A DNA stretch of 29,692 nt. It comes from Planctomycetota bacterium. Its GTDB lineage: Bacteria > Planctomycetota > UBA1135 > GCA-002686595. How positions within the stretch are numbered: position 1 is the first letter of the stretch; each line of letters starts with the position of its first letter. Location: positions 1 to 29,692 of the forward strand of contig JAJFFA010001003.1 in the NCBI GenBank assembly GCA_021776885.1. The letters run 5' to 3'. The translations under genes and the position numbers were made by a program. This document shows, piece by piece, positions 1-22,185 of the stretch. Under the pieces are notes generated by a model, which worked only from the letters and a program-made list of their open reading frames with translations, was not told the DNA's origin and did not search any database.

Positions 1-1927
1 CGAGCTGCGCCACGCGGCGCACCAGGGCCTCGCGGTTGACCAGGGTGACCCCGGGCAGCTCGCGCTCGAGGCGCGCCCCGAGGGCTTCGAGGGCCTCGAA
101 GTCGCGGGTGTAGATCGGCGTCTGCACGCGCCAGACGCCGTCCTCCAGGACGACGCGCTCGCCCAGGGTCTGCGCCGCTCCGCGCTGCACCAGGCGGGCG
201 TGGTCGAGGGCGGGCGGGGTGCGGGTGAGTCCCTCGAGGAAAGGCGTGAAGGCGCCTTGCTTGAAGCGCGAGCGCTCGCTCGCCCGCTCGAGGGCCGCGG
301 CCAGGCGCTCGCGACGCTCTGGATCGAAGAAGGCCTGCCAGCGGGCGAGTCGTGCGGCCTGGGTCGCGCGGGCGGGCAGGATGCCGGCGACGGACGCGTG
401 GCCCAGGAGATTCCCCGCGCGCTCTTCCTCGTTCAGAACCCGCGCCAGGGCGTCGTTCTGGACCAGGACGGCCTCGAGCTCGGGGCCTTCGATCAGGAGC
501 GTCGAGGACTGGTTCGCGCCCCAGGTCGCGCGCACCAGCTCCTCGTCCTGGGCCGCGTCCGGCCCCAGGCCGTTCAGGTTGCGCACGTCGCCGTCGAACT
601 CGAGGCGCAGGATGCCGAAGGCGAGCAGCGGCGTGGCCAAGAGCGCCAGCCAGCCGGCGCCGGAGCCCACGGTGTGGCGCCGCATCCAGCCCACCAGGTC
701 GATGGGAGCGGCCGCGGGCGCGCCGAAGAAGCGCTGCAGGGCGGGCAGCACGGCCAGGGCGTAGGCGGCCGCCGCCAGGATGCCGAGGCCGCCGAAGGTG
801 CCGATGTCGCGCAACCCCGGGATGGCGGAGGCGCGCAGCAGGAAGAAGGCGGCGCTGGTGGAGAGGGCGCCGAGGACCAGGGCGGCGATGGGCAGGCGCG
901 GCCCGCCGGCGTCACGCGTTGCGACGCTGGCAGCTCCTCCATCCGCTTCGCCGCCTCCACCCGCCGCGCCCGCGCGCAGCGCGACGATCACGTGCACCGC
1001 GAAGTCGAGGGTCAGCCCCAGCAGCACCGTCCCGAAGCCGATCACCGGCGCGGCGATCGTGTCCCGCCCCAGGGCGAAGAGCCCGGCGGCGACGAGGCCG
1101 CCCACCAGGGCTGGCGAGAAGGCGAAGAGCGCCAGGCGCAGGCGCCCGAGGCAGGCGATGGCGATGGCCGCCACCAGGGCCAGGCCGACCAGGGACGTGC
1201 GCGTCACGTCGCTCTTGATCAGGCGCTCGTTGTCCTTCGACGAGCGGTGCGCGCCGACGTGGGCCACGCGCAGGACGGGGAAGTCGGCCTCGATCGAGGC
1301 CTCGAGGGCGTCGAGCTTGGCCAGGAAGCGCTCGCTGCGCGCCAGGTCGCTGGCCGGGAAGCCGGGCTCGACCACCACCAGGAGGTGGCGACCGTCGGCG
1401 CTGAGCAGCCGGCCGTCCTCGATGCGCGCACCGGGCGGGCCGGCCGCGACCTGGGAGAGGGCGCTGAAGGCGGAGGCGGCCAGGCCCAGGGGATCCTCCG
1501 CCGCGTGCTGGGCGAGCCAGGCGCCATCGGGCTCCTGCAGGCGGCGCTCGAGGGTCAGGACGGCCTCGAGCACGGCGTCCTCCTGGGTGCGCGCCTCGAG
1601 GGTCTCGAAGCCCGCGTCGGGCAGGAGCTGGGGCAGGTGCTCGCGCACCAGGTCGGTCAGTTCGAGGGCGTCCCCGGGGGAGAACTCGGCCCGCGCGCTC
1701 TCGACCAGCTCGGCTGCGAGCAGCTCGTCCGCGATGCGGTCGGCGGCTCGACCCAGGGCGTCGAGTTCGCAGCCCGCGGCGCAGGAGACGTCGATGACCG
1801 TGCGCTCGAGGAAGCCGCGCAGGGTGCGCGTGCTGCGCGCGACGACGGCGTCGCCGTCCGGCAAGAGGCGCGCCAGGTCGTGGTCGAGGGACAGGCGCGT
1901 GGCGACCAGCGCCGCGGCCAGCAGCAC
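1..1927 (-). CDS. MMPL/RND-family exporter of aryl-polyene/flexirubin-type clusters (partial, 3' end outside window; start uncertain)
   Basis: Open frame from about 1930 to position 1, absent from the ORF track because it has no stop. It reads VLLAAALVATRLSLDHDLARLLPDGD...EDPLGL...GFGTVLLGLTLDFAVH...GALSTSAAF...GLRDIGTFGGLG, with multiple TM segments. The first in-frame GTG is at 1927; the GTG at 1977 overlapping the GT2 stop is out of frame by 1 nt. Confidence 0.88.
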   Translation of the reverse strand, partial: MLLAAALVATRLSLDHDLARLLPDGDAVVARSTRTLRGFLERTVIDVSCAAGCELDALGRAADRIADELLAAELVESARAEFSPGDALELTDLVREHLPQLLPDAGFETLEARTQEDAVLEAVLTLERRLQEPDGAWLAQHAAEDPLGLAASAFSALSQVAAGPPGARIEDGRLLSADGRHLLVVVEPGFPASDLARSERFLAKLDALEASIEADFPVLRVAHVGAHRSSKDNERLIKSDVTRTSLVGLALVAAIAIACLGRLRLALFAFSPALVGGLVAAGLFALGRDTIAAPVIGFGTVLLGLTLDFAVHVIVALRAGAAGGGGEADGGAASVATRDAGGPRLPIAALVLGALSTSAAFFLLRASAIPGLRDIGTFGGLGILAAAAYALAVLPALQRFFGAPAAAPIDLVGWMRRHTVGSGAGWLALLATPLLAFGILRLEFDGDVRNLNGLGPDAAQDEELVRATWGANQSSTLLIEGPELEAVLVQNDALARVLNEEERAGNLLGHASVAGILPARATQAARLARWQAFFDPERRERLAAALERASERSRFKQGAFTPFLEGLTRTPPALDHARLVQRGAAQTLGERVVLEDGVWRVQTPIYTRDFEALEALGARLERELPGVTLVNREALVRRVAQL

Positions 1928-1973
1928 CAGGGACGTCAGACCCGCGCGGCGGAGGGGGGAGGCGCGGATCGCG

Positions 1974-3143
1974 TCACTCCGTCTTCCAGCCCGCCGGTGG
2001 CCGCTTGAGCGCGGCGAAGGCGAGCAGGGTCAGGGCGAAGCCCGCGGCCGAGACCAGGCCGGCCAGGGCGAAGCTGCCGACGACCCAGTTGAGGAAGTCG
2101 GCGCGCTCCAGGTCCAGCCCGGTCAGGTCGCCCCCCGCACCCCCGCGGATGCGCCGGCCCAGGACCAGGGAGGCGTACAGGATGGGCGGGATCATCAGCG
2201 GGAAGGAGACGTGGGCGGCGAGCACCGCCACGGCCTTCGAAGCGCGCAGGAGGTGGGCCAGGGTCAGGGTCAACGCGACCTGGAAGCCCCAGAAGGGGGC
2301 GATGCCCATGAAGAGGCCCAGGGCCACGGAGCCGGCGACGTGCAGGGGCGGACCGTGCCCCTCGAGGAACAGGCTGCGCGCGCCGCGGGCCACGCGCGCG
2401 CGGAAGCCCAGGGCGTGGAACTCGCGTTTGCAAATCAGCGCCAGGAACATGGGCGGCAGGGCCACGCGCAGGAACACGAGGTGCGTGTTGAGCGCCGCGA
2501 TGCGCAGGAAGTCGACCACCGGGCGGAAGTGCGAGACGCGCTCGTCGCCCTGGTCGTAGACGACCCGCACCGGGACCGAGCGCAGGGGCACGCCGCACCA
2601 GGAGGCCTTGACCAGGACCTCGACCTCGTAGCCGAAGCGGCGGTTCTTCAGCACCAGGGAGCGGATCGCGTCGAGGGGATAGACGCGGTAGCCGGTCTGG
2701 GTGTCGGGCAGGCGCTCGCCGGTCTCGACCCGCGTCCAGAAATTCGAAACGCGGCACCCGAAGCGGCTGCCCTTCCCGGCCCCCGCGGCGAGTAGATCGC
2801 GGGCGCCGATGATCAGGGCCTCGGGCTCGCGCTCGAGGGCCTCGAGCAGCTGCGGCACGTCCTCGGGGTAGTGCTGGCCGTCCGAGTCGAGGGTGATGGC
2901 GTGGCTGAAGCCCCGGGCCTGGGCCTCAGCGAAGCCGGTCTCGAGGGCGGCGCCCTTGCCCTGGTTGAGCGGGTGGCTCAGGACGCCGATGCCCTCGATC
3001 CCCGCCAGCACCTCGCCCGTGCCGTCCGTCGAACCGTCGTCCACCACGAGCACCTCCAGACCGGTGGCCAGGGAGCGCTCGACCACGTCCCGCAGGCTGC
3101 GGGCGTTGTTATAGGTAGGGATCAGGATGCAGGCGGCGCTCAC
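1974..3143 (-). CDS. Glycosyltransferase family 2 fused to C-terminal DUF2062 membrane domain
   Basis: LIPTYNN, VVDDGSTDG, NQGKGAAL, TLDSDGQH, DTQTGYRVY and FGYEVEVL motifs, followed by hydrophobic ALGLFMGIAPFWGFQ...PPILYASLVLG. Start placed at GTG 3143; the alternative is ATG 3152. Confidence 0.9.
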   Translation of the reverse strand: MSAACILIPTYNNARSLRDVVERSLATGLEVLVVDDGSTDGTGEVLAGIEGIGVLSHPLNQGKGAALETGFAEAQARGFSHAITLDSDGQHYPEDVPQLLEALEREPEALIIGARDLLAAGAGKGSRFGCRVSNFWTRVETGERLPDTQTGYRVYPLDAIRSLVLKNRRFGYEVEVLVKASWCGVPLRSVPVRVVYDQGDERVSHFRPVVDFLRIAALNTHLVFLRVALPPMFLALICKREFHALGFRARVARGARSLFLEGHGPPLHVAGSVALGLFMGIAPFWGFQVALTLTLAHLLRASKAVAVLAAHVSFPLMIPPILYASLVLGRRIRGGAGGDLTGLDLERADFLNWVVGSFALAGLVSAAGFALTLLAFAALKRPPAGWKTE

Positions 3144-3150
3144 GCCGGGC

Positions 3151-3156
3151 ATCCTA
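3151..3156 (-). promoter_or_regulatory. Putative -10 hexamer TAGGAT, 7 nt upstream of the GT2 GTG start (leaderless-type)
   Basis: Minus strand reads gcggaTAGGATgcccggcGTG; no Shine-Dalgarno. Confidence 0.4.
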
Positions 3157-3180
3157 TCCGCCGGAGGCCCGGAAGCGGGA

Positions 3181-3200
3181 GCGCGTGCACAGCCCTGAAG
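3181..3200 (+). repeat. Left arm of interrupted inverted repeat (gcgcgtgc-aca-gccctgaag)
   Basis: Its 8-bp and 9-bp blocks are exact reverse complements of 6667-6674 and 6658-6666. It overlaps the halogenase 1 start codon. Confidence 0.7.
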
Positions 3201-4885
3201 ACTGCTACGACGTCGCCGTCCTGGGCTCCGGCCTGGGCGGCTCGAGCCTGGCCGCGATCCTCGCGCGCCAGGGCCTGCGCACGCTCCTGCTCGAGGCGCA
3301 GAGCCACCCGCGCTTCAGCGTGGGCGAGTCGGTGGTGGCCGAGTTCGGCGCCCGGGCCGAGCTCCTGGCGCGGGCCTTCGACGTGCCGGAGCTGGCGCAC
3401 ATGCGCAACTTCCAGCGCCTGGCGCGCATCAGCGCGGGCTCGGGGCCCAAGCGCAACTTCAGCTTCCTGCACCACACGCAAGGCCGCGAGCAGCGCCCCG
3501 GGGACGTGTGCCAGTTCGAGACCATGGCGCCGCCCCTCGGGCCCGACAGCCACATCCTGCGCGCCGAGCTGGACGCGTACCTGACCAGCGTCGCCGTGGG
3601 CTACGGCGCGGACTATCGCGACGGGAGCCCGGTGGAGAGCGTGGAGCGCAGGGGTGACGTCATGGCCCTGCGCGCCGGCGGGCGTGGGTACACGGCGCGC
3701 TTCGTGGTCGATGGGAGCGGCCCGGGCTCGTGCCTCGCCCGGCCCCTGGCGGACCCCGGACTGCGCGCGGACACGCGCTCGCTCTTCACGCACATGGTCG
3801 GCGTGGGCGCCATCGACGCGCTGCGCGGAGCGGGACCGCGGCTCAAGAGCTCCCCCGACCAGGGCACCCTGCACCACACCTTCGACGGGGGCTGGTTCTG
3901 GGTGATTCCCTTCGGCAACCACCGCGCGTCCCTGCACGACACGTGCAGCGTGGGACTGACCCTCGAGCGCTCGCGCTTTCCCGACAACGAGCTGCCCGCG
4001 GCCCAGGAGTTCGCCGAGTTCGCGGCGCGCTTCCCCACGGTCGCGGCCCAGTTCGAGGGCGCGCGTCCGATTCGGAGCTGGGTCAAGACGGGCCGTCTGC
4101 AGCGCCGGGTCGAGCGGGTGACGGGGGAGGGCTGGTGCCTGCTGCCCCACACGGCGGGCTTCGTCGATCCGCTCTTCTCGGGCGGCATGGTGCTGACCCT
4201 GCTCGGGGTACAGCGCATCGCGCAGCTCTTGCTCCAGGGTTTCGAGCAGGACGACCTGGCGCCGGCGCGCTTCGCCTCCCTCGACGAGGACGCCGCCGCC
4301 AACGCCGAGATCCAGGACACCCTGGTGCACAGCGCGTACCTCGCGTTCCGCTCCCACGCCCTGTTCCACGCCTGGTACCGCATCTGGGCCCTGGGCAACT
4401 TCCACGCGGCCCTGGGCCTGACCCGCGAGCTCCTGGCCCACGCCGCGGACCGCGGCCACGACCTCCTGGCGGGGGCCGAGGCTCCGCTGCACCGGCGCGT
4501 GATGGGCATGGGGCATCCGCGCTTGCGCGCGCTGCTCGACCAGGGTCACGCCGTGCTCGAGCGGGTGGCGGCGGGGGAGCTGGACGCCAGCCAGGGTGTC
4601 GACGCGCTCTTCGGTCTGGTCGAGGGTCTCGACTGGGTACCGCCCCAGTTCCACGTCGCGGACCGCGGCCGCGCGTACCTGACCTCGTTCACCGTGGCGC
4701 CGATGCTGCGCATGGTGACCTGGGGCAAACGCCACGCGCCGCCCGACGTGCGCGAGGCGTACTACGACCTGAGTCCCGTATACTTCCAGGAGCTGATCCG
4801 CTGCTTCGGCCGCGAGGGCGCAGGCGGACTTTCTTCTTTCTGGCGAGTGTTCCAGCACGCACACACATCCCGTGGCCGAGCCTGA
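3185..4885 (+). CDS. Flavin-dependent halogenase, PrnC-like (free-substrate type)
   Basis: 566 aa. GSGLGG FAD motif, HPRFSVGES, GPKRNFSF (catalytic-Lys position), QGTLHHTFDGGWFWVIPFGNH (WxWxIP), WVKTGRLQ and HTAGFVDPLFS. These match the motif series and length I recall for PrnC. Confidence 0.85.
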   Translation: MHSPEDCYDVAVLGSGLGGSSLAAILARQGLRTLLLEAQSHPRFSVGESVVAEFGARAELLARAFDVPELAHMRNFQRLARISAGSGPKRNFSFLHHTQGREQRPGDVCQFETMAPPLGPDSHILRAELDAYLTSVAVGYGADYRDGSPVESVERRGDVMALRAGGRGYTARFVVDGSGPGSCLARPLADPGLRADTRSLFTHMVGVGAIDALRGAGPRLKSSPDQGTLHHTFDGGWFWVIPFGNHRASLHDTCSVGLTLERSRFPDNELPAAQEFAEFAARFPTVAAQFEGARPIRSWVKTGRLQRRVERVTGEGWCLLPHTAGFVDPLFSGGMVLTLLGVQRIAQLLLQGFEQDDLAPARFASLDEDAAANAEIQDTLVHSAYLAFRSHALFHAWYRIWALGNFHAALGLTRELLAHAADRGHDLLAGAEAPLHRRVMGMGHPRLRALLDQGHAVLERVAAGELDASQGVDALFGLVEGLDWVPPQFHVADRGRAYLTSFTVAPMLRMVTWGKRHAPPDVREAYYDLSPVYFQELIRCFGREGAGGLSSFWRVFQHAHTSRGRA

Positions 4886-6098
4886 CGAGATCCCGCTCGA
4901 GACGGACGTGGTGGTGGTGGGCGCGGGCCCGGCCGGCGCGACCCTCGGCTACCTGCTGGCCCAGCGCGGCCGCGACGTGGTCGTGCTCGAGCGCGCGCCG
5001 GACGTGCCCTTCAAGATCGGCGAGTCGCTCCTGCCCGCCGGCATCGACCTGTGCCACCGCATGGGGCTCGAGGCCACCCTGCGCGACCACGGTTTCGTGC
5101 CCAAGCTGGCGGCCCAGTTCATCCTGCCCGACGGCGAACGCGGCCGCTTCCCCTTCTCGGACGGCCTGCCCGACAGCAGCCACGGCTCCCTGGCCTACGA
5201 GGTCAAGCGCCGCGAGTTCGACACGATCCTGGTCGACCACGCCCGCTCGGCGGGGGCGCGCGTCTACTTCGACACGCGCGTCGCGGACCTCGAGCTGCAC
5301 GACGGGGGCGCGCGCCTGGACCTGGCGGACGGGCGCTCGATCTCCGCGCGCTTTCTGGTCGACGCCACCGGCCAGGCCCACTGGGTCGCGCGCAAGCTGG
5401 GCCTGGCACGGCCCATCGCGGGCCTGGGCAAGGCGGCGATCTTCGCCCACTTCGACGGCATCCCCCACGGCGAGGGCGAGCAGCGCGGCGACATCGTCGT
5501 CTTCTGGGGCGAGACCTCGTGGGTCTGGATCATCCCCTTCAGCGACGGCACCACCAGCGTCGGCGCGGTCGCCGACCCGGCCACCCTGCGCGCCGCGGGC
5601 AAGACGGACCAGGAGCGCTTCGACACCCTCTGCTCCCTGACCGAGCACCACGGCGTGCTTCTGGGCGAGCGCCGCGCCCTGATGCCCCTCGAGCGCCGCG
5701 CCGACTTCTCCTACGAGTGCGAGCGCCTGTGCGGCCCGCGCTTCGCCCTGACCGGCGACGCCTCGGGCTTCATCGACCCGATCTTCTCGACGGGCGTCTT
5801 CCTGGCCCAGCAGAGCGCCTTCCTGATCGCGGACCCCCTGGCCGCGGCCCTGGACGAATCACGCCCCCTGAGCGATTCCGAGCAGGCCCACTACACGGCC
5901 ACCCTGCGCAAGGGCTTCGAGCGCTTCCGCTCGATGGTCCAGGGCTCCTACGACCACGGCTTCGTGCAACGCGCGGTCAAGCTACGCCGCCGCCGCGGCA
6001 TGCGCGCCGCCTTCACCTCACTCCTCGCGGGCGACGTCTTCGACGACGACAACCCCCTGATCACCATGGGCCTGCTCGAGAGGGGCATGCACTTCTAG
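4872..6098 (+). CDS. FAD-dependent halogenase-like oxidoreductase (PltA/CndH-like, carrier-protein type)
   Basis: 408 aa. GAGPAG, FKIGESLLP, GFVPKLAAQF (Lys), WVWIIP and GDASGFIDPIFSTG. GTG start overlaps the halogenase 1 stop by 14 nt. Confidence 0.8.
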   Translation: MAEPDEIPLETDVVVVGAGPAGATLGYLLAQRGRDVVVLERAPDVPFKIGESLLPAGIDLCHRMGLEATLRDHGFVPKLAAQFILPDGERGRFPFSDGLPDSSHGSLAYEVKRREFDTILVDHARSAGARVYFDTRVADLELHDGGARLDLADGRSISARFLVDATGQAHWVARKLGLARPIAGLGKAAIFAHFDGIPHGEGEQRGDIVVFWGETSWVWIIPFSDGTTSVGAVADPATLRAAGKTDQERFDTLCSLTEHHGVLLGERRALMPLERRADFSYECERLCGPRFALTGDASGFIDPIFSTGVFLAQQSAFLIADPLAAALDESRPLSDSEQAHYTATLRKGFERFRSMVQGSYDHGFVQRAVKLRRRRGMRAAFTSLLAGDVFDDDNPLITMGLLERGMHF

Positions 6099-6135
6099 GG
6101 TTTCCAGGGCTCGAGCTGGGGCCCAGTCGACCGAT

Positions 6136-6155
6136 ATACCAGAATATGGTATCAT
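6136..6155 (+). promoter_or_regulatory. parDE promoter/operator: extended -10 TGnTATCAT overlapped by inverted repeat ATACCA-N5-TGGTAT
   Basis: TG at 6147-6148, TATCAT at 6150-6155, inverted repeat at 6136-6141/6147-6152, SD GGAGG at 6173-6177 before ATG 6183. RHH antitoxins typically autorepress at such sites. Confidence 0.6.
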
Positions 6156-6182
6156 GGTCTGAGGCCACGTAGGGAGGTACCC

Positions 6183-6437
6183 ATGCCCAAGAACACATCT
6201 TTCATCCTCGGTGATCACTTCGACGCCTTCGTGGCGGCGCAGATCGATGCCGGCCGCTACGCGAATGCGACCGACGTGATCCGCTCGGGCCTGCGGCTGC
6301 TCGAAGAGCATGAGGACCAGGTGGCGGCACTACGCCAAGCTCTGATCGAAGGCGAGGAGAGCGGCGTGGCCGGTCCCTTGGACATGGCGAAGATCAAGAG
6401 ACAAGCGCGCGAAGAGGCGGGCCCGGCGCCGTCGTAA
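6183..6437 (+). CDS. parD: Type II antitoxin, ParD/CC2985 ribbon-helix-helix family
   Basis: 84 aa MPKNTSFILGDHFDAFV...GRYANATDVIRSGLRLLEE...LRQALIEGEESG; strong SD; TAATG coupling to the toxin. Confidence 0.92.
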   Translation: MPKNTSFILGDHFDAFVAAQIDAGRYANATDVIRSGLRLLEEHEDQVAALRQALIEGEESGVAGPLDMAKIKRQAREEAGPAPS

Positions 6438-6661
6438 TGCGCGCGCTGGTCATCAGCGTCCGCGCAGAGGCCGATCTTCGCGAGATCTGGCGCTACAGCT
6501 TCAAGGAATGGGGCGTAGAGCAAGCCGACCGCTATCTCGACGAGCTCGATGACGGCCTGCAGGAGTGCGGCGCAGATCCAGAACGTGGAAGGCATCGCGA
6601 AGCCGTGCGACCTGATTACTGGTCGCGGCTCGTGCGCAAGCACGTCGTCTTCTACACCTTC
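6437..6661 (+). pseudogene. parE: ParE-family toxin, C-terminally truncated at about 75 aa, with no own stop codon
   Basis: AEADLREIWRYSFKEWGVEQADRYLDEL...YWSRLVRKHVVFYTF is ParE-like. Similarity ends at the inverted repeat (6658), and the frame then runs antisense through the PKS operon to 8611. Confidence 0.8.
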
Positions 6662-6674
6662 AGGGCGCACGCGC
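6658..6674 (-). repeat. Right arm of interrupted inverted repeat (cttcagggc-gcacgcgc)
   Basis: Reverse complement gcgcgtgc-gccctgaag matches 3181-3188 plus 3192-3200. It coincides with the parE breakpoint, 6 nt from the deacetylase stop. Confidence 0.7.
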
Positions 6675-6679
6675 CAGCC

Positions 6680-7432
6680 TCAGACCGCGCACGTCTCGAG
6701 GCCGGCTCGGTCGAGGCCGTCGAGGAGGCCGCGGGTGATGGCGAGCACGCGCTCTGGCGGCAAGCCGCCGTCGTGGAGCAGGACGATGGCGCCCGGGTGG
6801 GTTGCGGCGAGGACGCGTTCGACCACCTGCTGCGCGGGCTCGCTCGAGCGGTCGTAGCTGCGCACGCTCCAGCCGACGACGGTCAGGCCCAGGGCGGCGG
6901 CGGTGGGGTGCACGGCCGGATTGCGCAGGCCGACCGGGGGGCGGTAGTGGCGCGGGGTCTCGCCCGTCAGGTCCGTGAGGGTGCGCTGGCAGGCTTCGAT
7001 CTCGCGCTGCATCGGGCCGCGGAAGCACAGGTTGAGGAAGGGGGAGTGGCGCTCCGAGTGGTTCCCGATGACGTGGCCCTCGGCGTGAATGCGGCGCAGG
7101 AGCTCGGGCTGGGCGCGGGCCTCCTTGCCGACGACGAAGAAGGTGGCCTGGACGCCGCGTTCCGCGAGCAGATCGAGCAGGGCCGGGGTGCTCGCGGGGT
7201 TCGGGCCGTCGTCGTAGGTCAGGGCGACGCCGGGGGAGTCCGGGAGCTCGCACAGGGCGCGGCCGAAGAAGGGCGAGCGGATCGAGATCACGCCCCAGGC
7301 GACGAGGCCCAGGTAGACCAGGGCCAGCAGGACCCAGGCGCGGGCGCGGACGGGCGGCGGCAGGGCGAAGCTGGCCGCCAGGAGTGCGAAGGCTGCGAGC
7401 TGGACGCGGCGGTAGGGCGTGAGCCGCTGCAT
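6680..7432 (-). CDS. Polysaccharide deacetylase (CE4/NodB domain) with N-terminal TM hairpin
   Basis: ALTYDDGP, ATFFVVG, IGNHSERH, HYRPPVG, WSVRSYD and IVLLHDGG motifs. Confidence 0.92.
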   Translation of the reverse strand: MQRLTPYRRVQLAAFALLAASFALPPPVRARAWVLLALVYLGLVAWGVISIRSPFFGRALCELPDSPGVALTYDDGPNPASTPALLDLLAERGVQATFFVVGKEARAQPELLRRIHAEGHVIGNHSERHSPFLNLCFRGPMQREIEACQRTLTDLTGETPRHYRPPVGLRNPAVHPTAAALGLTVVGWSVRSYDRSSEPAQQVVERVLAATHPGAIVLLHDGGLPPERVLAITRGLLDGLDRAGLETCAV

Positions 7433-7435
7433 GGG

Positions 7436-8260
7436 TCAGGCGCGGGCGAGGGCGATCAGGGCGCACTCGCCCCGCGGTGTGACCTCGAGCAGGGCGATGC
7501 GCTCGGCGCGCGCATCGAGTCCGAGGGCGGCCGGGCTCGACTCGCCGGCGAGGATGGCGGCCGCCAGGGCCGTGCGCGTGGCCAGGGAGGAGGCGTGCTG
7601 GGCGCCGCCGCTGGAGACCACTGCGGCAGCGTCGTCGGCGAGCTCTGCCCTGGCCCAGGCTTCGGGGTCGTCCGGCCTGCCGAAGGCCAGGGATGCGATG
7701 CGCGCCATGGGCGACGCGGCGTCGCGCGACACGAGGCACAGGGCCCCGCCCTCCTCTTCCCCCGCGACATCCCCGGCGCGGGCCAGCTCGAGGAAGGTCT
7801 CGCGCGGCAGCTCGTCGACGGCGCCGACGCAGAACGGACCCGGGCCCGTGGCGCGGGCGGCGGCAAAGAGGGCCCAGGCGAAGGACAGCTCCCCGTGCAC
7901 GAAGGTCGAGCACTCGCCGCGGGCGCCCAGCTCCTGGGCCGCGAAGGAGGCGATCGCGTTGTGCACCGAGGCCGAGAAGGCGCGCGGCTTGGGCGTGGCC
8001 TCCTCGGCCCGGAACAGGTGCGCGAGGAAGCTCTCGGTCTCCGTCTGGCAGCCCAGGTTCGTTCCGAAGAGCACGCCCAGGGTCGGCGCCGGGTCGCTGT
8101 CTCCCAGGGCGGCCCGGGCCAGGGACAGGCCCAGGTTCGGCAGGCGCCCGCCCTTGCGCACCGGCACCCGCTCGCGCAGGGCGACGCGCCGCGCCTCGGG
8201 CAGGGCTTCGCTCCCCGCTCCCGCGGCGGCGACGGCCTGGACGTAGAGCTCGGGGTTCAC
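7436..8260 (-). CDS. Beta-ketoacyl synthase chain-length-factor-like protein (KS N-terminal fold, no catalytic Cys seen)
   Basis: GVLFGTNLGC...PKPRAFSASVHNAIASFAAQELGARGECSTFVHGELSFAWAL. GTGA overlap with the upstream KS stop. Confidence 0.75.
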   Translation of the reverse strand: MNPELYVQAVAAAGAGSEALPEARRVALRERVPVRKGGRLPNLGLSLARAALGDSDPAPTLGVLFGTNLGCQTETESFLAHLFRAEEATPKPRAFSASVHNAIASFAAQELGARGECSTFVHGELSFAWALFAAARATGPGPFCVGAVDELPRETFLELARAGDVAGEEEGGALCLVSRDAASPMARIASLAFGRPDDPEAWARAELADDAAAVVSSGGAQHASSLATRTALAAAILAGESSPAALGLDARAERIALLEVTPRGECALIALARA

Positions 8261-9441
8261 GCCAGCGGCTCCGCGCGCTCGAAGACCAGGGCCGTGTTGT
8301 TGCCGCCGAACCCGAAGGAGTTCGAGAGGGCGACCTGTGGAGTCGCCTCGCGGGACTCGCGCAGGGGCTCGAGCCCGCAGGCCGGGTCGACGTCGCTCAG
8401 CCGTGCCGTGCCCGGCAGGAAGCCGCGCGACAGGGCCAGGGCGCAGGTCACCGCCTCGATCGCCCCCGCCGCACCGAGGGTGTGGCCGAAGAGGCCCTTG
8501 ACCGACGAGGTGGGCGGCGGCGCGCTCCCCTGCGCGGCGAAGAAGCGCGCGATGGCGTTGCCCTCCGCCAGGTCGTTGCCCTGGGTGCCCGTGCCGTGGG
8601 CGTTGATGTAGTCGACCCGGGCCGCGTCGATCCCGGCCCGCTCGAGGGCGCCGCGCATGGCCTGGGTCGCGCCGCGTCCCTCCGGGTCGGGCGCGGTCGG
8701 GTGGTGGGCGTCGCAGGTGTTGGCGAAGCCGGCCAGGAGCGCGAAGCTGCGCGCGCCCCGCGCTCGCGCCTCTTCGGCGCGCTCGAGGACGCAGAACGCC
8801 GCCCCCTCGCCCAGGCTCATCCCCGCGCGCCGCGCGTCGAAGGGGCGCGCCCCCTCGGGATCCATGGCCAGGAGCGACGCGAAGCCGTTCAGGGTCAAAC
8901 GCGTCAGGGCGTCGACGCCCCCCGCGACCACGGCGTCCGCCATGCCCGTGGCCAGGAGTTCCGCGCCGACGGCCAGGGCCTGGGCCCCGGACGAGCAGGC
9001 GTTCGAGATCGTCGTCGCCGGTCCGGCCAGGCCGAACTCTCGGGCCAGGGCGAAGGTCGTGTGCACACAGGCGTGGCGCGTCCAGACCGTCGCGTCGTGG
9101 TCGGCGCTCGCCAGGCGCGCCCCGAGGGCCGTCTCCGTCTCGGGCATGCCGCCGCCGCAGGTGCCAACGACCAGGCCGATGCGCTCGGGCGCGTGGACCA
9201 GGCCGGCGTGTTCGAGGGCGTCCGCCAGGGCCATGCGTCCCAGGGCCAGGTTGCGCGGCCCGGGCCCGACGCCCGCGACCTGCGCCACCGGATGCTGTCC
9301 CTGGCGCGGTGAGGCGAAGAGGGTCAGGCGCCCGAGCCCCGAGCGCCCCGTGCGCAGCGCGGCCTCCGTCGCGTCGAGCCCGCGCCCCACGGCCGAGACG
9401 AGCCCCAGCCCGGTGATCGCGACGCGCTCGGGCGAGCCCAA
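8257..9441 (-). CDS. fabF: Beta-ketoacyl-ACP synthase II-type ketosynthase
   Basis: TISNACSSG (Cys), NAHGTGT and KGLFGHTLGAAG (His/His), NSFGFGGNN. TTG start directly after the ACP stop. Confidence 0.92.
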   Translation of the reverse strand: MGSPERVAITGLGLVSAVGRGLDATEAALRTGRSGLGRLTLFASPRQGQHPVAQVAGVGPGPRNLALGRMALADALEHAGLVHAPERIGLVVGTCGGGMPETETALGARLASADHDATVWTRHACVHTTFALAREFGLAGPATTISNACSSGAQALAVGAELLATGMADAVVAGGVDALTRLTLNGFASLLAMDPEGARPFDARRAGMSLGEGAAFCVLERAEEARARGARSFALLAGFANTCDAHHPTAPDPEGRGATQAMRGALERAGIDAARVDYINAHGTGTQGNDLAEGNAIARFFAAQGSAPPPTSSVKGLFGHTLGAAGAIEAVTCALALSRGFLPGTARLSDVDPACGLEPLRESREATPQVALSNSFGFGGNNTALVFERAEPLA

Positions 9442-9699
9442 TCAGCCCTCGCGGTGCTGGGCGACGAACTCCGCCAGGGAGCGCACGCTGGCGAAGGCGG
9501 ACTTGGCCGTCTCCATGTCCGTCAGGCGGATGCCGTAGTGGCGCTCGACCATCACCACCAGCTCGACCGCGTCGATCGAGTCGAGGCCCAGGCCCTCCTC
9601 GAACAGGGCGTCGTCCATGCTGATCGACTGCGGGTCCACGTCCTCCAGCTCGAGGTCGTTGATGATGTGCGCTTTGAGTTCTTCGGCGAGCTGTTCCAT
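9442..9699 (-). CDS. Acyl carrier protein (ApeE-like)
   Basis: 85 aa, acidic; LFEEGLGLDSIDAVEL phosphopantetheine site; TGATG coupling to the upstream gene. Confidence 0.92.
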   Translation of the reverse strand: MEQLAEELKAHIINDLELEDVDPQSISMDDALFEEGLGLDSIDAVELVVMVERHYGIRLTDMETAKSAFASVRSLAEFVAQHREG

Positions 9700-10403
9700 C
9701 AATCGGCGTGTGCGCGTCGCAGTTGTTGCAGGGCAAGACCCGCCGGATCGCGTGCCTCGAGCAGCGCGTCGACGGGGGCCAGGTCGGATTCTAGTGCATC
9801 CCCGGGCTCGATGAGCAGCACGACCAGCCGGGCGCTCGCTTCCAGGCCGAGGTCCGCCGCGCTCGCCCCCGCCTCGACCCCGACCCAGTCGCCGAGGCAG
9901 ACCAGGACGCGCCCGGCGAGCCCCTCCTGCACCAGGCCCAGGGCTTCGCCCAGGGCCGGCGCCTCGCCCCCGGGCGGCGTCGAGTAGGCCAGGGTCGGGC
10001 CGGTCAGCCCGTAGCGCAGGGCCAGGACGCCCAGGAAGGTGCTGGGCAGGGTGTACGGAAAGAGCCCGGCCTGGGTGCCGTGGCTCGAGCCCAGGCTGGC
10101 CTCGAAGTGCCAGTCGGCGTCGAGACAACCCGCCGCCCCGATGGCGACCACGGCCGTGGTGTCGTCCGCGGGGGCGGCGCGCGCGGGCAGCCCCGCGCAC
10201 TCGGTCGCGGCGCAGGCGATGCGGCTCAGGCGGTCGAGGTGGCGCGCGCCGGGGAAGGAGGACTCGAACAGTGCGCGCCAGCGCAGCTTGTCGCGCAGGG
10301 GGTCGAGGGGTATGTCGCGCCAGGCGCGCGCGTAGCCGCTGGTGCCCAGGAGACCCTCGAGGTCGGCGCCGCCGGCGGCGGCCAGGCGCAGGGGCGCAGT
10401 CAT
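9699..10403 (-). CDS. Non-catalytic ketosynthase-like partner (short, flexirubin-type 3-oxoacyl-ACP synthase-like protein)
   Basis: 234 aa; HLDRLSRIACAA...AGLFPYTLPSTFLGVLALRYGLTGP. ATGA overlap with the upstream KS; lacks the His/His motifs. Confidence 0.72.
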   Translation of the reverse strand: MTAPLRLAAAGGADLEGLLGTSGYARAWRDIPLDPLRDKLRWRALFESSFPGARHLDRLSRIACAATECAGLPARAAPADDTTAVVAIGAAGCLDADWHFEASLGSSHGTQAGLFPYTLPSTFLGVLALRYGLTGPTLAYSTPPGGEAPALGEALGLVQEGLAGRVLVCLGDWVGVEAGASAADLGLEASARLVVLLIEPGDALESDLAPVDALLEARDPAGLALQQLRRAHAD

Positions 10404-11536
10404 GCCTGGAAGACCAGGGCCCAGTCGATGCCGCCGAAGCCGGCGGCGAGCTTGAGCGCGGTCTGCGCCCGGGGCAGGGGACGCGACGCGCCGCTCAGGG
10501 GGAACTCCAAGGCCGGGTCGACGTGCTCGAGGCGCAGGTTGGGCGGGGACACGCCACGCGCGAGGGCCTCGAGGGCGACCAGGCTCTCGAGTACGCCCGC
10601 CGCGCCCAGGGTGTGGCCGAGCTGAGCCTTGGAGCCGGCGGCGGCCGGGGCGACGGGCGCGCCCTCGAAGACGCGACGCAGGGCGTGGCACTCCATCGCG
10701 TCGTTGTAGGGCGTGCCCGTGCCGTGCAGGTGGACCAGGTCGACGTCCGCGGGGGTGCAGCCGGCGCAGTCGAGGGCGCGCTGCATGGCGCGCGCCAGTC
10801 CCGCGCCGTCGCGGCTCGGGCCGGTGACATGGTTCGCGTCGTTGCTCGCGCCGAAGCCGCACAGCCGCGGGCTGCGTTCCTGGCGCTGATCGGGGGCGGC
10901 GGCGAGCACCATGGCCCCCGCTCCCTCACCGACCGAGAGTCCGGCGCGGGTCACGTCGAAGGGCCGGCAAGCGAGCGGGTCGAGGGCCAGCAGGCTCGAG
11001 AAGCCCTGCAGCACGAAGGGCTCGAGCACATCGACGCCGACGACCAGCACGTGGCGCGCCACGCCACGCCGGATCCAGCGCGCCCCCTGGGCCAGGGCCG
11101 CCAGGCCCGAGGCGCAGGCACAGGACACGGCGATGCGCGGTTCGCCGGCTTCGAGCTCGGCCGCGAGGGCCTGGCACAGGCGCCAGGGGGCGGCGTGCTC
11201 GCCGGCCCGCGCGATCCCGCGCGAGAGGTCGGCCTTGGTGGTGGCCAGGACCAGGGCGACGTCGGCGCCCGCGAGGCCGGCGTCCTGCAACGCTTCGCGC
11301 GCGGCGCGCCGGGCGAGGGACAGGGCCGGCGGCAGGCCTGCTTCGAAGCACTCGTGCGGCACCTCCGCCGCGACGGACGTCAGGCACTCGACCTGGGCCA
11401 GGCGGCCCCGCGGGCGCACCCCCGAGCGGCCGTCGAACACGCCCTCGAGCAGCGCGGGAGCGCCGGCACCGAAGGCCGACACCGCGCCGCGCCCGACGAC
11501 CCATGCGACTCGGGCGACCTGGGCGGCGTCCTTCAC
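10400..11536 (-). CDS. Beta-ketoacyl-ACP synthase II-type ketosynthase
   Basis: AVSCACASG, HLHGTGTPYND, KAQLGHTLGAAG and AAGFGG motifs. GTG start at 11536 overlaps the thioesterase stop. Confidence 0.9.
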   Translation of the reverse strand: MKDAAQVARVAWVVGRGAVSAFGAGAPALLEGVFDGRSGVRPRGRLAQVECLTSVAAEVPHECFEAGLPPALSLARRAAREALQDAGLAGADVALVLATTKADLSRGIARAGEHAAPWRLCQALAAELEAGEPRIAVSCACASGLAALAQGARWIRRGVARHVLVVGVDVLEPFVLQGFSSLLALDPLACRPFDVTRAGLSVGEGAGAMVLAAAPDQRQERSPRLCGFGASNDANHVTGPSRDGAGLARAMQRALDCAGCTPADVDLVHLHGTGTPYNDAMECHALRRVFEGAPVAPAAAGSKAQLGHTLGAAGVLESLVALEALARGVSPPNLRLEHVDPALEFPLSGASRPLPRAQTALKLAAGFGGIDWALVFQA

Positions 11537-11991
11537 GGGTGCAGCGCGCGCTCCTTCCAGCGCTCGACGAAGCGGTCGAAGAACTCGGGGCGGCAGTAGA
11601 TCAGCTGGCCCTCGTGGTCGGTGAAGATCTGCTCGGTCGTGCCGCGCACCGCCGCCTCGCCCGTCGCCTTCGACACGAGGTAGGTGAAGACCAGCTTCGC
11701 GCCGGGCACGAGGTGCAGGCGCGTGCGCACGCTGAGCTCCTCGTCGTAGCGCGTCGGCAGGAGGTAGTCGAGGTCGACGTGGACCAGGGGCGCGAAGCAG
11801 CCGGCGGCGTGGATGTCCTCGTAGCCGAACTGATACTCGCGTCCGAAGGCCGAGCGGCCCTCCTCGAAGTACGACAGGTAGTGGCCGTGCCAGGTCATGC
11901 GCAGGGAGTCGACCTCCTGGAAGCGCACGCGCACCGGGCAGGTGTTCTCGAGGAAGTTTCCCGCAGGGGGGCCGGAGCGGCGGCGCTTCAC
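11533..11991 (-). CDS. Acyl-CoA/ACP thioesterase, hotdog 4HBT/YbgC family (ApeK-like)
   Basis: VRVRFQEVDSLRMTWHGHYLSYFEEGR...LDYLLPTRYDEEL; GTGA coupling. Confidence 0.9.
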   Translation of the reverse strand: MKRRRSGPPAGNFLENTCPVRVRFQEVDSLRMTWHGHYLSYFEEGRSAFGREYQFGYEDIHAAGCFAPLVHVDLDYLLPTRYDEELSVRTRLHLVPGAKLVFTYLVSKATGEAAVRGTTEQIFTDHEGQLIYCRPEFFDRFVERWKERALHP

Positions 11992-12434
11992 GCCGGCGGC
12001 CCCGCTTGCTCCGTGAAGAACTGGAAGTCGCCCGCGGCCAGCACCTCGCCCGCCACCCGTGCCTGACCGTGGACCAGGGAGATCGCGTCGAGCTCGCGCA
12101 CCAGGCTGACCTCGTACTCGAGCACCTCGCCGACCTTGGGCAGGCGCTCGATCGAGAAGCGCGAGAGGCCCACCAGCATGCCGCGTAGCACCCCGCGCCC
12201 ACGGCGCCGGGCGGCGGCGCCGTGCATGGCCGCGGCGGTCTGGGCGATGCCCTCGATCAGCGCGGCTTCCCACAGCGCGCCCTGCGCGTCGACATCGGGA
12301 CCCGGGCGCACCTCGCGGCGCGCGACGGCGCGCGCGTCCTCGAGCACGAGCAGCGCGTCCAGCCCCAGGATCGGCGGCCGATGGGGCACGTACTCGGCCA
12401 GATCGAAGGCCGACTCTCGCGGGGCGGACTCCAC
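11988..12434 (-). CDS. 3-hydroxyacyl-ACP dehydratase-like hotdog protein (ApeP/FabA-Z-like)
   Basis: YVPHRPPILGLD...LIEGIAQTAAA...GMLVGLSRF motifs. Confidence 0.85.
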   Translation of the reverse strand: MESAPRESAFDLAEYVPHRPPILGLDALLVLEDARAVARREVRPGPDVDAQGALWEAALIEGIAQTAAAMHGAAARRRGRGVLRGMLVGLSRFSIERLPKVGEVLEYEVSLVRELDAISLVHGQARVAGEVLAAGDFQFFTEQAGPPA

Positions 12435-12454
12435 CCGATGGCTCCGCGCCGCGC

Positions 12455-12715
12455 TCAGGCGCCCGTCTCGGCCGAGAGGCGCGAGTGGACCTGGTCGTAG
12501 ATGTCGCCGAGGGTGCGGATCGTCTTGGCGTTGGCCTCGGGGATCCGGCAGCGGAAGGTCTTCTCGAGGGCGACGACCAGGTCGACACCGTCGAGGCTGT
12601 CCATGTCGAGATCCTTCGCCAGGCTGGCCTCAGCGCGCAGGTCGCTGGCCGGCACCTCGAACTCTTCCACCATGATGCGGTTGACGAGTTCTTCGATCTC
12701 TTCGCGTTTCGGCAA
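12455..12715 (-). CDS. Acyl carrier protein (ApeF-like)
   Basis: 86 aa; LAKDLDMDSLDGVDLVVALEK; TTG start with strong SD AAGGAGG (12721-12727). Confidence 0.92.
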   Translation of the reverse strand: MPKREEIEELVNRIMVEEFEVPASDLRAEASLAKDLDMDSLDGVDLVVALEKTFRCRIPEANAKTIRTLGDIYDQVHSRLSAETGA

Positions 12716-12792
12716 GGTCCCCTCCTTGGGAGGCCGAAGGTACTCCGGCGGGGGTAGGGGGGCAATGGGTCGCGGGCCGGGTCCCTGCGGGT

Positions 12793-14487
12793 TCAGCTTC
12801 CGCCGCCGCGCAGCCGCTCGAGAGCCGCCCGCGCGGCCTCGACATGGGGCTCGAAGGGGGGCACGGCTTCCAGCGCCGCGGCGTACAGGGCCGCCGCCCG
12901 CGAGTTGTCGCCCTCGAGCTCCCTGGCGCGGGCCAGGAGCAGCAGGATCCCGGGGTCGTCCGGGCTCAGCTCGTGGGCGCGCTCGAGGCGCGCGAGCTCA
13001 TCGGGGCCGAGGCGCCCGTTCCCCTCGAGGGCGCTCTCGATGCCCTCCATCAGCCTGCGCTGTTCGACCAGGCGCGCGTAGCTGCCGTCCTCCAGGGCGG
13101 GGTCCGCGGGGACCGGCGCGAGGTCCGCCGGCGGGCCCTCGCCGAAGCCCTCGATGCTGTACGGATCGAACGCGCCGAGCTGGTGCGGACCGCGGCTGAC
13201 CCACAGCACTCCGCGGGTCACGTCGGCCACCACCGAGTGGGTGGCGATCATCGGGTTGATCGTGCCGCGGTGGCCCAGGGCGCGGGGCGCGCCCCCCGGC
13301 CCGTCCCGGTCGCGCAGGATGGCGACCGCCCTCTCGACGTCGAGCTGGCCCCGGGCCGCCTCGCACAGCTCGCTGGTGCGGGCGTGGCGGGCGCGGCTGG
13401 AGCCGACGCGCATGTACTCGGCATTCCCGGCGTCGTCCGCGAACTCGGGGGTCTCGAAGTGGTTGGCCTGGATCAGGAGCTCTCCCTCGAGCCGGCGCAG
13501 GGCGGACTTGCCCGGGGCGCGCTCGACCACGACCGCCTCACCCGTCTCGCCGTCGGCGATCAGGTAGGAGTCCGAGACGAAGATCTCGGCGCCGGCGACG
13601 ATCTCGATCGCCTGCTCCAGGTCTTGCGCGTACTGCAGCACCTCGCGCACGACCAGGGACACCGGGCGCCCGATGTTCGAGCGCTGCTCGGAGTGGGCCC
13701 CGTTCACGGAGCAGAAGATGCGCTCGGCGTTGATCCCGGTGACGGCCCCGGCCATCCCGGGCCAGGACACGGAGAGGAACGCCAGCCCCGCCTCGGGTCG
13801 GTAGAGGGCGATGACCTTGTTGCGGTCGAAGTGCTCGCCGGCCTCCCAGTCGAAGTTGCGGGCCACCAGGAGCCCGCCGTCCAGGCTGGCCGCGCCCCGC
13901 GCGGCGAAGGCCGTGCAGCCCAGGACCGGCTTGTCCCAGACCCAGTGGGAGATGTCGTGGGCGGCGTGGTAGTTCAGGATCCGGTGGTAGCGCGGTCCGA
14001 GGTAGCCGTACTGGTCCTCGGGGCCGCCCTGCGACAGGCCGAGGATCTCGAGGGCGTACTCGGGCTGGACGTAGTCGGGCAGGTTGCGGTTGTTGACCAG
14101 GACCAGGAGCCCCAGGCCGATGCGCTTCAGGAGCGAGGGGAACTTGGCCTCGACCGTGTCGATCAGGCTCTTCTCCTGGAAGGCCAGGAGGTCGTGGGTC
14201 AGGCGCGCGTTCGCGTAGCCCAGCTCGAAGGGCGAGCCCTCCAGATAGAGCAGCGAGCGGCCCTCCGCCGGCTGGTACCAGGAGGCCCCCAGGTGCACGC
14301 GGCCGTCCTCGGTGTGGCGCGCCTCGAGGTCGAGCAGGGCGGGACGGGCCGCCAGGACCGGAGGCTCGGCGAAGCAGAACAGGAGCGCCCAGCCCACGAA
14401 GAGGGCCAGCAGCAGGGCCAGCCCGAGGGCGCCCCCCGCCAGGCGGCGTAGCCAGCGCGGCCAGCGTCCGATGCCGATGTGAAGCAT
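12793..14487 (-). CDS. C45-family Ntn-hydrolase (acyl-CoA:6-APA acyltransferase-like) with N-terminal membrane anchor
   Basis: N-terminal TM (LALLLALFVGWALLF), LYLEGSPFELGY, HDISH...LGCTAFAARG (N-terminal-nucleophile Cys), ARNFDW, GAVTGINAERI, QANHF and ATHSVV. Confidence 0.88.
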   Translation of the reverse strand: MLHIGIGRWPRWLRRLAGGALGLALLLALFVGWALLFCFAEPPVLAARPALLDLEARHTEDGRVHLGASWYQPAEGRSLLYLEGSPFELGYANARLTHDLLAFQEKSLIDTVEAKFPSLLKRIGLGLLVLVNNRNLPDYVQPEYALEILGLSQGGPEDQYGYLGPRYHRILNYHAAHDISHWVWDKPVLGCTAFAARGAASLDGGLLVARNFDWEAGEHFDRNKVIALYRPEAGLAFLSVSWPGMAGAVTGINAERIFCSVNGAHSEQRSNIGRPVSLVVREVLQYAQDLEQAIEIVAGAEIFVSDSYLIADGETGEAVVVERAPGKSALRRLEGELLIQANHFETPEFADDAGNAEYMRVGSSRARHARTSELCEAARGQLDVERAVAILRDRDGPGGAPRALGHRGTINPMIATHSVVADVTRGVLWVSRGPHQLGAFDPYSIEGFGEGPPADLAPVPADPALEDGSYARLVEQRRLMEGIESALEGNGRLGPDELARLERAHELSPDDPGILLLLARARELEGDNSRAAALYAAALEAVPPFEPHVEAARAALERLRGGGS

Positions 14488-22053: not shown

Positions 22054-22185
22054 GGGGGGCTGAGGCACCGCTGGAGGAGACGAATGCGGTGGGCCAAGAA
22101 GCCTATCCAAGCCTCCGCCGCAAGGGGAGCGCCTATTCCAATAGCAGGCGGATCCCGGGGCCACGGGGCGGCAATGGACGCCGCC

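Follow-up and report, generated by a model that had tools for sequence, protein, structure and literature searches.

What do the ketosynthase and halogenase genes packed into one half of a planctomycete contig make, and do they form a pathway by themselves? The genes in question lie between positions 1 and 14487 of contig JAJFFA010001003.1 (Planctomycetota bacterium, assembly GCA_021776885.1), whose forward strand, 29,692 nucleotides long, was analysed in full and is called the window here. The locus had been read as an aryl-polyene-family type II polyketide synthase cluster carrying halogenases, and the gene set, the gene order and a tree of the ketosynthases (KSs) all support its place among the type II polyketide synthase/fatty-acid synthase-like lipid clusters of that family. 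The gene content indicates that positions 1-14487 are probably one arm of a xanthomonadin-type aryl-polyene pigment-lipid cluster, the rest of which would lie on five further contigs of the same genome (C589, C528, C255, C537 and C752).

The window spans all of contig C7 of a fragmented metagenome-assembled genome (MAG; G000, 1060 contigs, 67% complete). Therefore, no sequence exists to the left of position 1, where the first-pass annotation had supposed that further genes might lie. Reading frames in this DNA of 73% G+C were chosen by third-position GC content (GC3) together with a pos1>pos2 rule, and gene families were assigned with Pfam and NCBIfam. At least seven PSD1-domain proteins are encoded in the MAG, the domain is absent from all 14 control genomes, and gene content places the host in the Planctomycetota.

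Gene content and organisation of the locus

The order described earlier (thioesterase, KSs, acyl carrier protein (ACP), deacetylase, halogenases, GT2/DUF2062, MMPL and a C45 peptidase-family protein) is real, as judged by the GC3 frames and by Pfam and NCBIfam matches (Table 1). The earlier gene list was correct except that it had overlooked two minus-strand genes, those of ACP 1 and of a hot-dog dehydratase (DH). Ten minus-strand genes, from the C45 gene to the deacetylase gene, form a tightly packed core block in which most neighbours abut or overlap by 4 nt and which is therefore likely to constitute one operon. The open reading frames (ORFs) of the two halogenases, HalA and HalB, overlap by 14 nt on the plus strand and run convergently to the deacetylase operon. 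The divergent starts of GT2/DUF2062 and HalA are only 32 bp apart (3153-3184), so any promoters here must overlap coding sequences.

Table 1. Genes of positions 1-14487 of the window (contig C7) and of the five contigs assigned to the same cluster. CLF, chain length factor; KR, ketoreductase; rSAM, radical SAM protein.
Feature	Contig	Position	Strand	Evidence and remarks
C45 proenzyme with C-terminal TPR	C7	12793-14487	-	NCBIfam C45_proenzyme NF040521 4e-54; Pfam AAT 1e-17, TPR_19
ACP 1	C7	12455-12715	-	Pfam PP-binding 1.5e-9
Hot-dog 3-hydroxyacyl-ACP DH, ApeP-like	C7	11988-12434	-	Pfam ApeP-like E=0.017, below cut-off
4HBT-fold thioesterase, ApeK-like	C7	11533-11991	-	Pfam 4HBT_2 1e-7, 4HBT 3e-5
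KS1	C7	10400-11536	-	Pfam ketoacyl-synt N and C domains; NCBIfam AmcF 8e-63, PRK09185 3e-62
Short KS-like partner of KS1, 234 aa, without catalytic Cys	C7	9699-10403	-	no Pfam match
ACP 2, ApeE-like	C7	9442-9699	-	Pfam PP-binding 1e-9
KS2, ApeO-like	C7	8257-9441	-	NCBIfam PRK09185 3e-98
Short CLF, ApeC/Lysobacter ORF16-like, 274 aa	C7	7436-8260	-	faint Ketoacyl-synt_2 match
NodB-type polysaccharide/chitooligosaccharide deacetylase	C7	6680-7432	-	Pfam Polysacc_deac_1 9e-32; NCBIfam NodB 1e-43
Truncated parE	C7	6437-6679	+	ParE_toxin 3e-13, profile positions 2-71 of 89 only
parD antitoxin	C7	6183-6437	+	ParD_antitoxin 3e-30
HalB	C7	4872-6098	+	NCBIfam CmlS 2e-50; PDB matches
HalA	C7	3185-4885	+	PDB matches CtcP, PltM
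GT2 glycosyltransferase + DUF2062, ApeJ/'dolichyl-phosphate mannose synthase'-like	C7	1974-3152	-	Pfam Glycos_transf_2 2e-25, DUF2062 1e-16
MMPL/RND exporter, ApeM-like, N-terminal 642 aa	C7	2-1927	-	Pfam MMPL 1.6e-5; cut by contig end
Methyltransferase tail, GNAT, LolA, LpxL-like acyltransferase	C589 (L075)			
Unknown gene, ApeI-like DH, KS, flavoprotein N-half	C528			DH: FabA 3e-9, ApeI-like 4e-5; KS: 77% identity
C-half of C528 flavoprotein, acyltransferase	C255			
Acyltransferase, chorismatase, third halogenase-like gene	C537			chorismatase: FkbO_Hyg5-like_N 2e-25
CLF, KS, ACP (third), AMP ligase, B12 rSAM, KR	C752			ligase: AMP-binding 6e-42; rSAM: 73%; KR: 77%, adh_short_C2 2e-55

The remainder of the cluster

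In the closest relative, a Logan/JGI metagenome contig (Ga0315337_000040; locus labels L021, L023/L024 and L032), the complete cluster occupies ~45 kb of a single contig and serves as the reference here. After the core block it continues with HalB, a fatty-acid desaturase and HalA in reverse orientation, followed by GT2/DUF2062, a 1237-aa fusion of MMPL, acyltransferase and methyltransferase, LolA and an LpxL-like acyltransferase. An unknown gene, an ApeI-like DH, a KS, an amine-oxidase-like flavoprotein, two acyltransferases and an FkbO/Hyg5-type chorismatase come next, and the cluster ends with a reversed group of full-length CLF, KS and ACP, an AMP ligase, a reversed B12 rSAM gene and a FabG-like KR. 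All of these genes also occur within 50 kb of one contig of another Planctomycetota MAG (G042, JAJDEW010000088.1, ~1-51 kb), where HalB stands beside the chorismatase.

When the reference proteins were searched by tblastn against the window's own MAG, each was found, at 39-77% identity, the matches falling on five small contigs. Two genes are split across contig ends, the MMPL fusion between C7 and C589 and the flavoprotein between C528 and C255, as fits one fragmented locus. The window's part of the fusion is 47% identical to residues 25-647 of the 1237-aa reference protein, and the MMPL and LolA genes are neighbours in both the reference contig (L021/L023) and G042. On C589 a GNAT gene (376-1275, minus strand) sits between the end of the fusion and LolA; none is present there in the reference contig or G042.

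Among the genes that the first-pass annotation had noted as absent from the window, the AMP ligase and the FabG-like KR are thus present, on C752, and the predicted starter enzyme is a chorismatase and not an ammonia lyase. The starter unit, which had been left open, is most likely 3- or 4-hydroxybenzoate made from chorismate, to judge from the FkbO/XanB2-type chorismatase on C537 and the AMP ligase on C752.

Distribution and modularity in the Planctomycetota

At 45-68% protein identity, the same core order is seen again in at least eight planctomycete loci that are independent of one another, which is far beyond chance. Homologs of the short CLF form only ~20 clusters among 5.8 billion proteins, and the short-CLF loci in species-representative genomes come from Planctomycetota MAGs in seven of seven cases. 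Of 400 genomes sampled evenly across the phylum, four in addition to the window's own, about 1%, have full-length orthologs (E<1e-60). In 40 relatives, a search for GT2/DUF2062 orthologs gave only GT2-domain matches of at most 42% identity; as such, the cluster is not general to the family. In the planctomycete family f62, ~20 genomes of 3-4.4 Mb (e.g. L045, L046 and L050) carry ~400-aa CLF-like ORFs whose match to the short-CLF profile is limited to its N-terminal half and which probably belong to a different KS/CLF lipid cluster. Elsewhere in the window's MAG, a divergent long-branch KS beside an amine-oxidase-like gene (C8, ~1466-4427) may mark a further lipid or polyketide locus.

The core block is present in four more assemblies (G115, which is 95% complete, G123, G098 and G043), in which orthologs of the chorismatase and of the full-length CLF (CLF406) were not found; the best CLF matches there reach 30-39% identity, compared with 64-69% for true orthologs. 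Orthologs of these two genes were found only in three assemblies, all of which also carry HalA and HalB. With three assemblies against four, drawn from related genomes, this co-occurrence should be taken as a pattern, not as a statistic; it fits the idea that an aromatic head group derived from chorismate is halogenated.

The same distribution bears on the most credible of the alternatives, namely that the core block is an independent non-aromatic polyene or hydroxy-acyl envelope-lipid pathway that lies beside an aryl-polyene module, with the halogenases serving the module only. We consider this unlikely. The four assemblies that hold the block with no detectable FkbO or CLF406 ortholog speak for it, as do a KR of the block's own in one locus (L027), the unrelated genes that follow the deacetylase in several loci, and the ~11 kb of other genes that separate the block from GT2-MMPL in G042. 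However, the block lies within or beside the larger cluster in three of the three halogenase-bearing assemblies, and KS2 falls inside the group of ApeO/xanthomonadin-type KSs. The two-chain, GalNAc-phosphoglycerol-based aryl polyene (APE) lipids of Xenorhabdus, moreover, need both of their chains from one cluster (bioRxiv 10.1101/2020.12.19.423268), so that a separate core pathway would refine the xanthomonadin-type assignment more than exclude it.

Comparison with known aryl-polyene clusters

In content and layout the cluster is closest to the xanthomonadin/arcuflavin type. The xanthomonadin-type subfamily is characterised by a brominated aryl-octaene ester as product. The Azoarcus arc cluster contains a XanB2 chorismatase, a halogenase, a methyltransferase, a PS-deacetylase, a glycosyltransferase (GT), an exporter, LolA, acyltransferases, DHs, an AMP ligase and an ACP (PMC3949708). 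In Lysobacter and Xanthomonas a KS is paired with a 275-aa short CLF (ORF16) and flanked by GT2, with a halogenase flank in Xanthomonas (PMC3691225). With clusters of this type (arc/arcuflavin of Azoarcus sp. BH72, pig/xan of Xanthomonas and the yellow pigment of Lysobacter enzymogenes) the planctomycete cluster has in common a chorismatase, an AMP ligase and an ACP, a KS with a ~275-aa CLF, a FabG-like KR, two hot-dog DHs, a halogenase, a deacetylase, GT2, acyltransferases of LpxL/PlsC type, LolA and an MMPL exporter. To these it adds a second KS/short-CLF pair, a KS/full-length-CLF pair, a PltM/CtcP-type halogenase, the third halogenase-like gene, a membrane-anchored C45 protein, the B12 rSAM, the amine-oxidase-like flavoprotein and the fusion of MMPL, acyltransferase and methyltransferase.

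Two metagenomic loci laid out like the Azoarcus arc (L092 and L093) have the order methyltransferase-deacetylase-halogenase-MipA-GT2-KR-ApeP-short CLF-KS-MMPL-LolA-LpxL-ApeI-ligase. The window's deacetylase is 40-44%, its GT2 41% and its KS2 41-45% identical to their counterparts in these loci; unlike them, the planctomycete cluster shows no MipA gene.

The core gene set of APE lipids consists of the KSs apeO/R, the ACPs apeE/F, the CLF apeC, the DHs apeI/P, the KR apeQ and the transporter apeM (bioRxiv 10.1101/2020.12.19.423268). Compared with the reference ape cluster of E. coli CFT073, KS2 is 35-40% identical to ApeO, GT2 34% to ApeJ and ACP 2 45% to ApeE, while tblastn gives 25% between the thioesterase and ApeK and 34% between the C528 KS and ApeR. 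The 50% identity to ApeQ was measured on the reference KR, to which the C752 KR is 77% identical. The ape clusters of CFT073 and Xenorhabdus doucetiae also have in common with the planctomycete cluster an MMPL exporter (ApeM), ApeI- and ApeP-like DHs, LolA and a short CLF. In contrast, genes for a halogenase, a deacetylase, a chorismatase and a C45 protein are absent from the ape cluster, which has one CLF and starts from 4-hydroxybenzoate activated by ApeH.

The first-pass annotation had placed the locus nearer to the flexirubin clusters of Bacteroidota. A flexirubin-type cluster with a 4-coumarate starter derived by tyrosine ammonia-lyase and a dialkylresorcinol ester as product appears very improbable to us. 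The two types have in common a KS/short-CLF pair, ACPs, DHs and a halogenase-like flavoprotein, and flexirubin clusters also have genes for a GT, LolA, an acyltransferase and an exporter (PMC3949708). In the ESM Atlas the clusters nearest to the short CLF are mostly labelled Bacteroidota (a lead only), and one of the PDB matches of HalB is 3nix, a flavoprotein of Cytophaga hutchinsonii (6.5e-44). The flexirubin starter, however, comes from a tyrosine/histidine ammonia-lyase of FlxA type, in place of which the planctomycete cluster has a chorismatase, with AMP ligase, ACP, KS and CLF grouped as in xanthomonadin and arcuflavin clusters, and its deacetylase-halogenase-GT2 neighbourhood matches that of L092/L093. 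No aromatic ammonia-lyase (PF00221) was found on the cluster contigs, the copies in G000 (C1021) and G042 (C15) being on contigs unlinked to the cluster. DarA/DarB were likewise absent from the Pfam matches on the cluster contigs, in a screen that included no dedicated search for them.

Two subfamilies of flavin-dependent halogenase

In the PDB search HalA aligns end to end with CtcP, the tetracycline 7-halogenase (4e-94), and with PltM (8e-74). In this alignment its Lys89 corresponds to the conserved Lys of GQKSNF in CtcP and GIKLGF in PltM, and its motifs GSGLGG and WFWVIP are conserved in orthologs. HalB matches CmlS (1e-45), 3nix and PltA (2.5e-40) as well as CndH-like proteins (range 1e-45 to 5e-34), and carries the motifs GAGPAG and WVWIIP together with the Lys of FKIGESL, again conserved in orthologs. 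By these matches and motifs HalA is a flavin-dependent halogenase of the PltM/CtcP subfamily and HalB one of the PltA/CmlS/CndH-like subfamily, the usual type in xanthomonadin-like clusters. Since both would depend on flavin, what had been described as two different halogenase classes are two subfamilies of one class. HalA has its motifs in common with PltM of pyoluteorin and CtcP of chlortetracycline biosynthesis and differs from them in its setting, a planctomycete aryl-polyene lipid cluster.

A third halogenase-like gene lies on C537 (L078; 2-844, minus strand), directly downstream of the chorismatase, and is cut by the contig end. Its product shows the motifs WCWVIP and K-x-GEAT and shares 31% identity with HalB. 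Its position is taken in G042 by the ortholog of HalB, and HalA adjoins the deacetylase there. On this evidence the cluster carries two different flavin halogenases and probably a third. Homologs of the HalA clade, ~50% identical, are common in planctomycete metagenomes, where they stand alone among housekeeping or unrelated genes (L089, L090 and L091), and HalA may have been recruited from this wider planctomycete halogenase family.

The halogenase genes had been taken to occupy a slot that belongs to other genes, and we also asked whether they could be a recently inserted or invertible mobile cassette. They do run on the opposite strand, beside an intact parD and a truncated parE of lower GC (0.67), yet their own GC (0.72-0.73) matches the flanking DNA, and in the reference contig (L021) they occupy the same slot in the same orientation with no parDE. 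The site corresponding to parDE is empty of these genes in G042 as well. Moreover, HalA and HalB have kept GxGxxG, Lys and WxWxIP in the clusters of three genomes whose copies are only 55-64% identical, a distance that speaks against a foreign origin. Two HalB homologs of 38-39% identity lie between deacetylase and GT2 in L092/L093, having been selected only for their long contigs, and in arc-like clusters this is the normal place of HalB-family genes. No convincing inverted repeat surrounds the halogenase-parDE segment, the best being 29 nt at 72%, which is at chance level. A mobile cassette is thus very improbable. By conservation of position and motifs, HalA and HalB are integral to this subtype of the cluster, and parD with the truncated parE is the only insertion and stands outside the pathway. 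The parE match ends at profile position 71 of 89, after which the frame runs antisense into the deacetylase gene.

Ketosynthases and their short partners

The Cys-His-His triad is intact in all KSs examined, and the full-length CLF is without the Cys. In PDB searches KS2 matches Acinetobacter baumannii ApeO (6kxd, 2e-62). In a maximum-likelihood tree KS1 and KS2 fall into separate, wholly planctomycete clades (100/100 and 100/99), and these two clades, ApeO, the C752 KS/CLF pair and the KSs of L092/L093 form one group (92/99). The MAG has its own FabF, on C444 beside a FabG-like match, which joins E. coli FabF (99/98). On this tree, which had been proposed as a check of the earlier annotation and comes out in its favour, we reject the notion that KS1 and KS2 are housekeeping fatty-acid synthase genes grouped by coincidence, a notion with next to no remaining probability: FabF structures are among the best PDB matches of both, but neither groups with FabF and each is paired with a Cys-less short partner.

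The 274-aa short CLF has an F..SVHN motif in common with ApeC, its orthologs carry PF13723, and its nearest ESM Atlas clusters are annotated 'chain length factor family'. Those of the 234-aa protein are short ketoacyl-synt/CLF-family proteins, mostly from Planctomycetota. A modelled heterodimer of KS1 and the 234-aa protein scored an ipSAE of 0.93, compared with 0.00 for the best control; 51 of 78 solved complexes attain that mark, as do 2 of 108 mismatched pairs. Because KS-CLF structures are already known, this score shows likeness and is not proof of binding. Direct comparisons gave faint signals: the short-CLF profile met E. coli ApeC in a 41-column motif match only (probability 1.8%) and the 234-aa partner met it by BLASTP at E=0.008, each too weak alone, and a PDB profile search with the short-CLF alignment returned marginal matches only. 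By the motif, orthologs and Atlas neighbours of the 274-aa protein and the model of the 234-aa one, both short proteins are CLF-type partners of the adjacent KSs. The arrangement by which the APE family is recognised, a short Cys-less CLF beside a KS, is found here, though the window proteins fall below Pfam cut-offs.

The other proteins of the core block are similarly conserved. The ApeP-like DH has PHRPP...D and EGIAQT motifs and is 54% identical to a reference ortholog (L021) that carries PF22817, and the orthologs of ACP 1, at 60-68% identity, occupy the same position. The C45 gene is the first of the operon and also heads the core block in L021, L027, L028 and L031. Its product, assigned as an autoproteolytic Ntn acyltransferase/hydrolase, has a hydrophobic N-terminus, taken as a membrane anchor, and a G|CTAFAA nucleophile motif, both conserved in orthologs. 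Members of the C45 family transfer acyl groups to amines, and the protein could, as a hypothesis only, N-acylate the deacetylated sugar.

A proposed pathway

The following scheme takes gene identities, motifs, order, co-occurrence and KS placement as observed and infers the chemistry from them. The FkbO/XanB2-type chorismatase would convert chorismate to 3- or 4-hydroxybenzoate, which the AMP ligase would load onto an ACP. KS/CLF heterodimers, comprising the full-length-CLF pair beside the ligase and the window's two KS/short-CLF pairs, would then extend it with malonyl units to a conjugated polyene, with the FabG-like KR and the ApeI- and ApeP-like DHs acting in each round of elongation. By analogy with Xenorhabdus, one of the window's KS pairs may build a second conjugated acyl chain on its own ACP. 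The aromatic head would be halogenated, by HalB probably on the tethered chain and by HalA on a free phenolic: the HalB subfamily usually acts on carrier-tethered substrates and the PltM/CtcP subfamily on free phenolics. GT2/DUF2062 and the NodB-type deacetylase would build an amino-sugar anchor, and the 4HBT thioesterase, the acyltransferases and possibly the membrane-anchored C45 protein would attach the chain or chains to this anchor or to a phospholipid one. The MMPL-acyltransferase-methyltransferase fusion and LolA are predicted to carry the product to the outer membrane.

A more specific version of this scheme is unlikely. In it the product would be a multiply halogenated two-chain aryl-polyene glycolipid of a small Planctomycetota lineage, made through a division of labour that is not described for APE pathways, with HalA acting on free hydroxybenzoate or the released polyene, HalB on the ACP-bound chain, and the C45 protein N-acylating the amino sugar freed by the NodB-type enzyme in the manner of NodB and NodA; the halogenases and the chorismatase module would have been gained together, atop an older non-aromatic polyene-lipid core that survives by itself in other planctomycetes.

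Several points weigh against the xanthomonadin-type assignment as a whole. The joining of six contigs rests on synteny elsewhere, and the binning of a MAG that is 67% complete could mislead. Since the core block occurs elsewhere without chorismatase or CLF406, its product may be a non-aryl chain. Likeness to the clusters of Xanthomonas, Azoarcus and Flavobacterium is one of content and layout, the sequences having been compared only with L092/L093 at 37-45% identity. In the window, the matches behind the ApeP-like DH and the short CLFs lie below Pfam cut-offs, and the clade of C528 KS407-like proteins, at 34% identity to ApeR, does not group with ApeR in trees. No flavin reductase was seen, and the HalA-clade homologs met outside such clusters make the substrate of HalA uncertain.

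Other genes of the window

Beyond the locus, an 864-aa ORF (17448-20042) encodes an ECF sigma factor (regions 2 and 4) fused to carboxypeptidase-regulatory-like repeats. Positions 20088-26146 of the minus strand hold, in order, a B12 rSAM, a heme-oxygenase-like diiron protein, a second B12 rSAM, an HMG-CoA reductase and a DUF374 protein. The B12 rSAM genes at 22-26 kb were considered as members of the cluster and rejected, being only 26% identical to the cluster's rSAM, the ortholog of which is on C752; the 20088-26146 segment therefore looks like a separate, uncharacterised pathway.

Significance

Aryl-polyene clusters rank with the most widespread biosynthetic clusters of bacteria, and the known pigments of planctomycetes are carotenoids. 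In the literature found, no aryl-polyene product of a planctomycete is described, and isolate genome papers give antiSMASH 'arylpolyene' counts only (PMC10923784, PMC11588811), in agreement with the earlier view that the product is undescribed. The kind of cluster is well known; the version, by its genes and distribution, is rare, lineage-specific and equipped with extra enzymes. The planctomycete cluster leaves the understanding of the aryl-polyene family as it was. Its xanthomonadin-like starter and tailoring set is joined by three KS/CLF pairs, as many as three subfamilies of halogenase and a C45 protein, and it is a concrete candidate source of a new halogenated envelope lipid. The co-occurrence of its halogenases with the chorismatase module also suggests, in a form open to test, how clusters of this kind are put together from modules.

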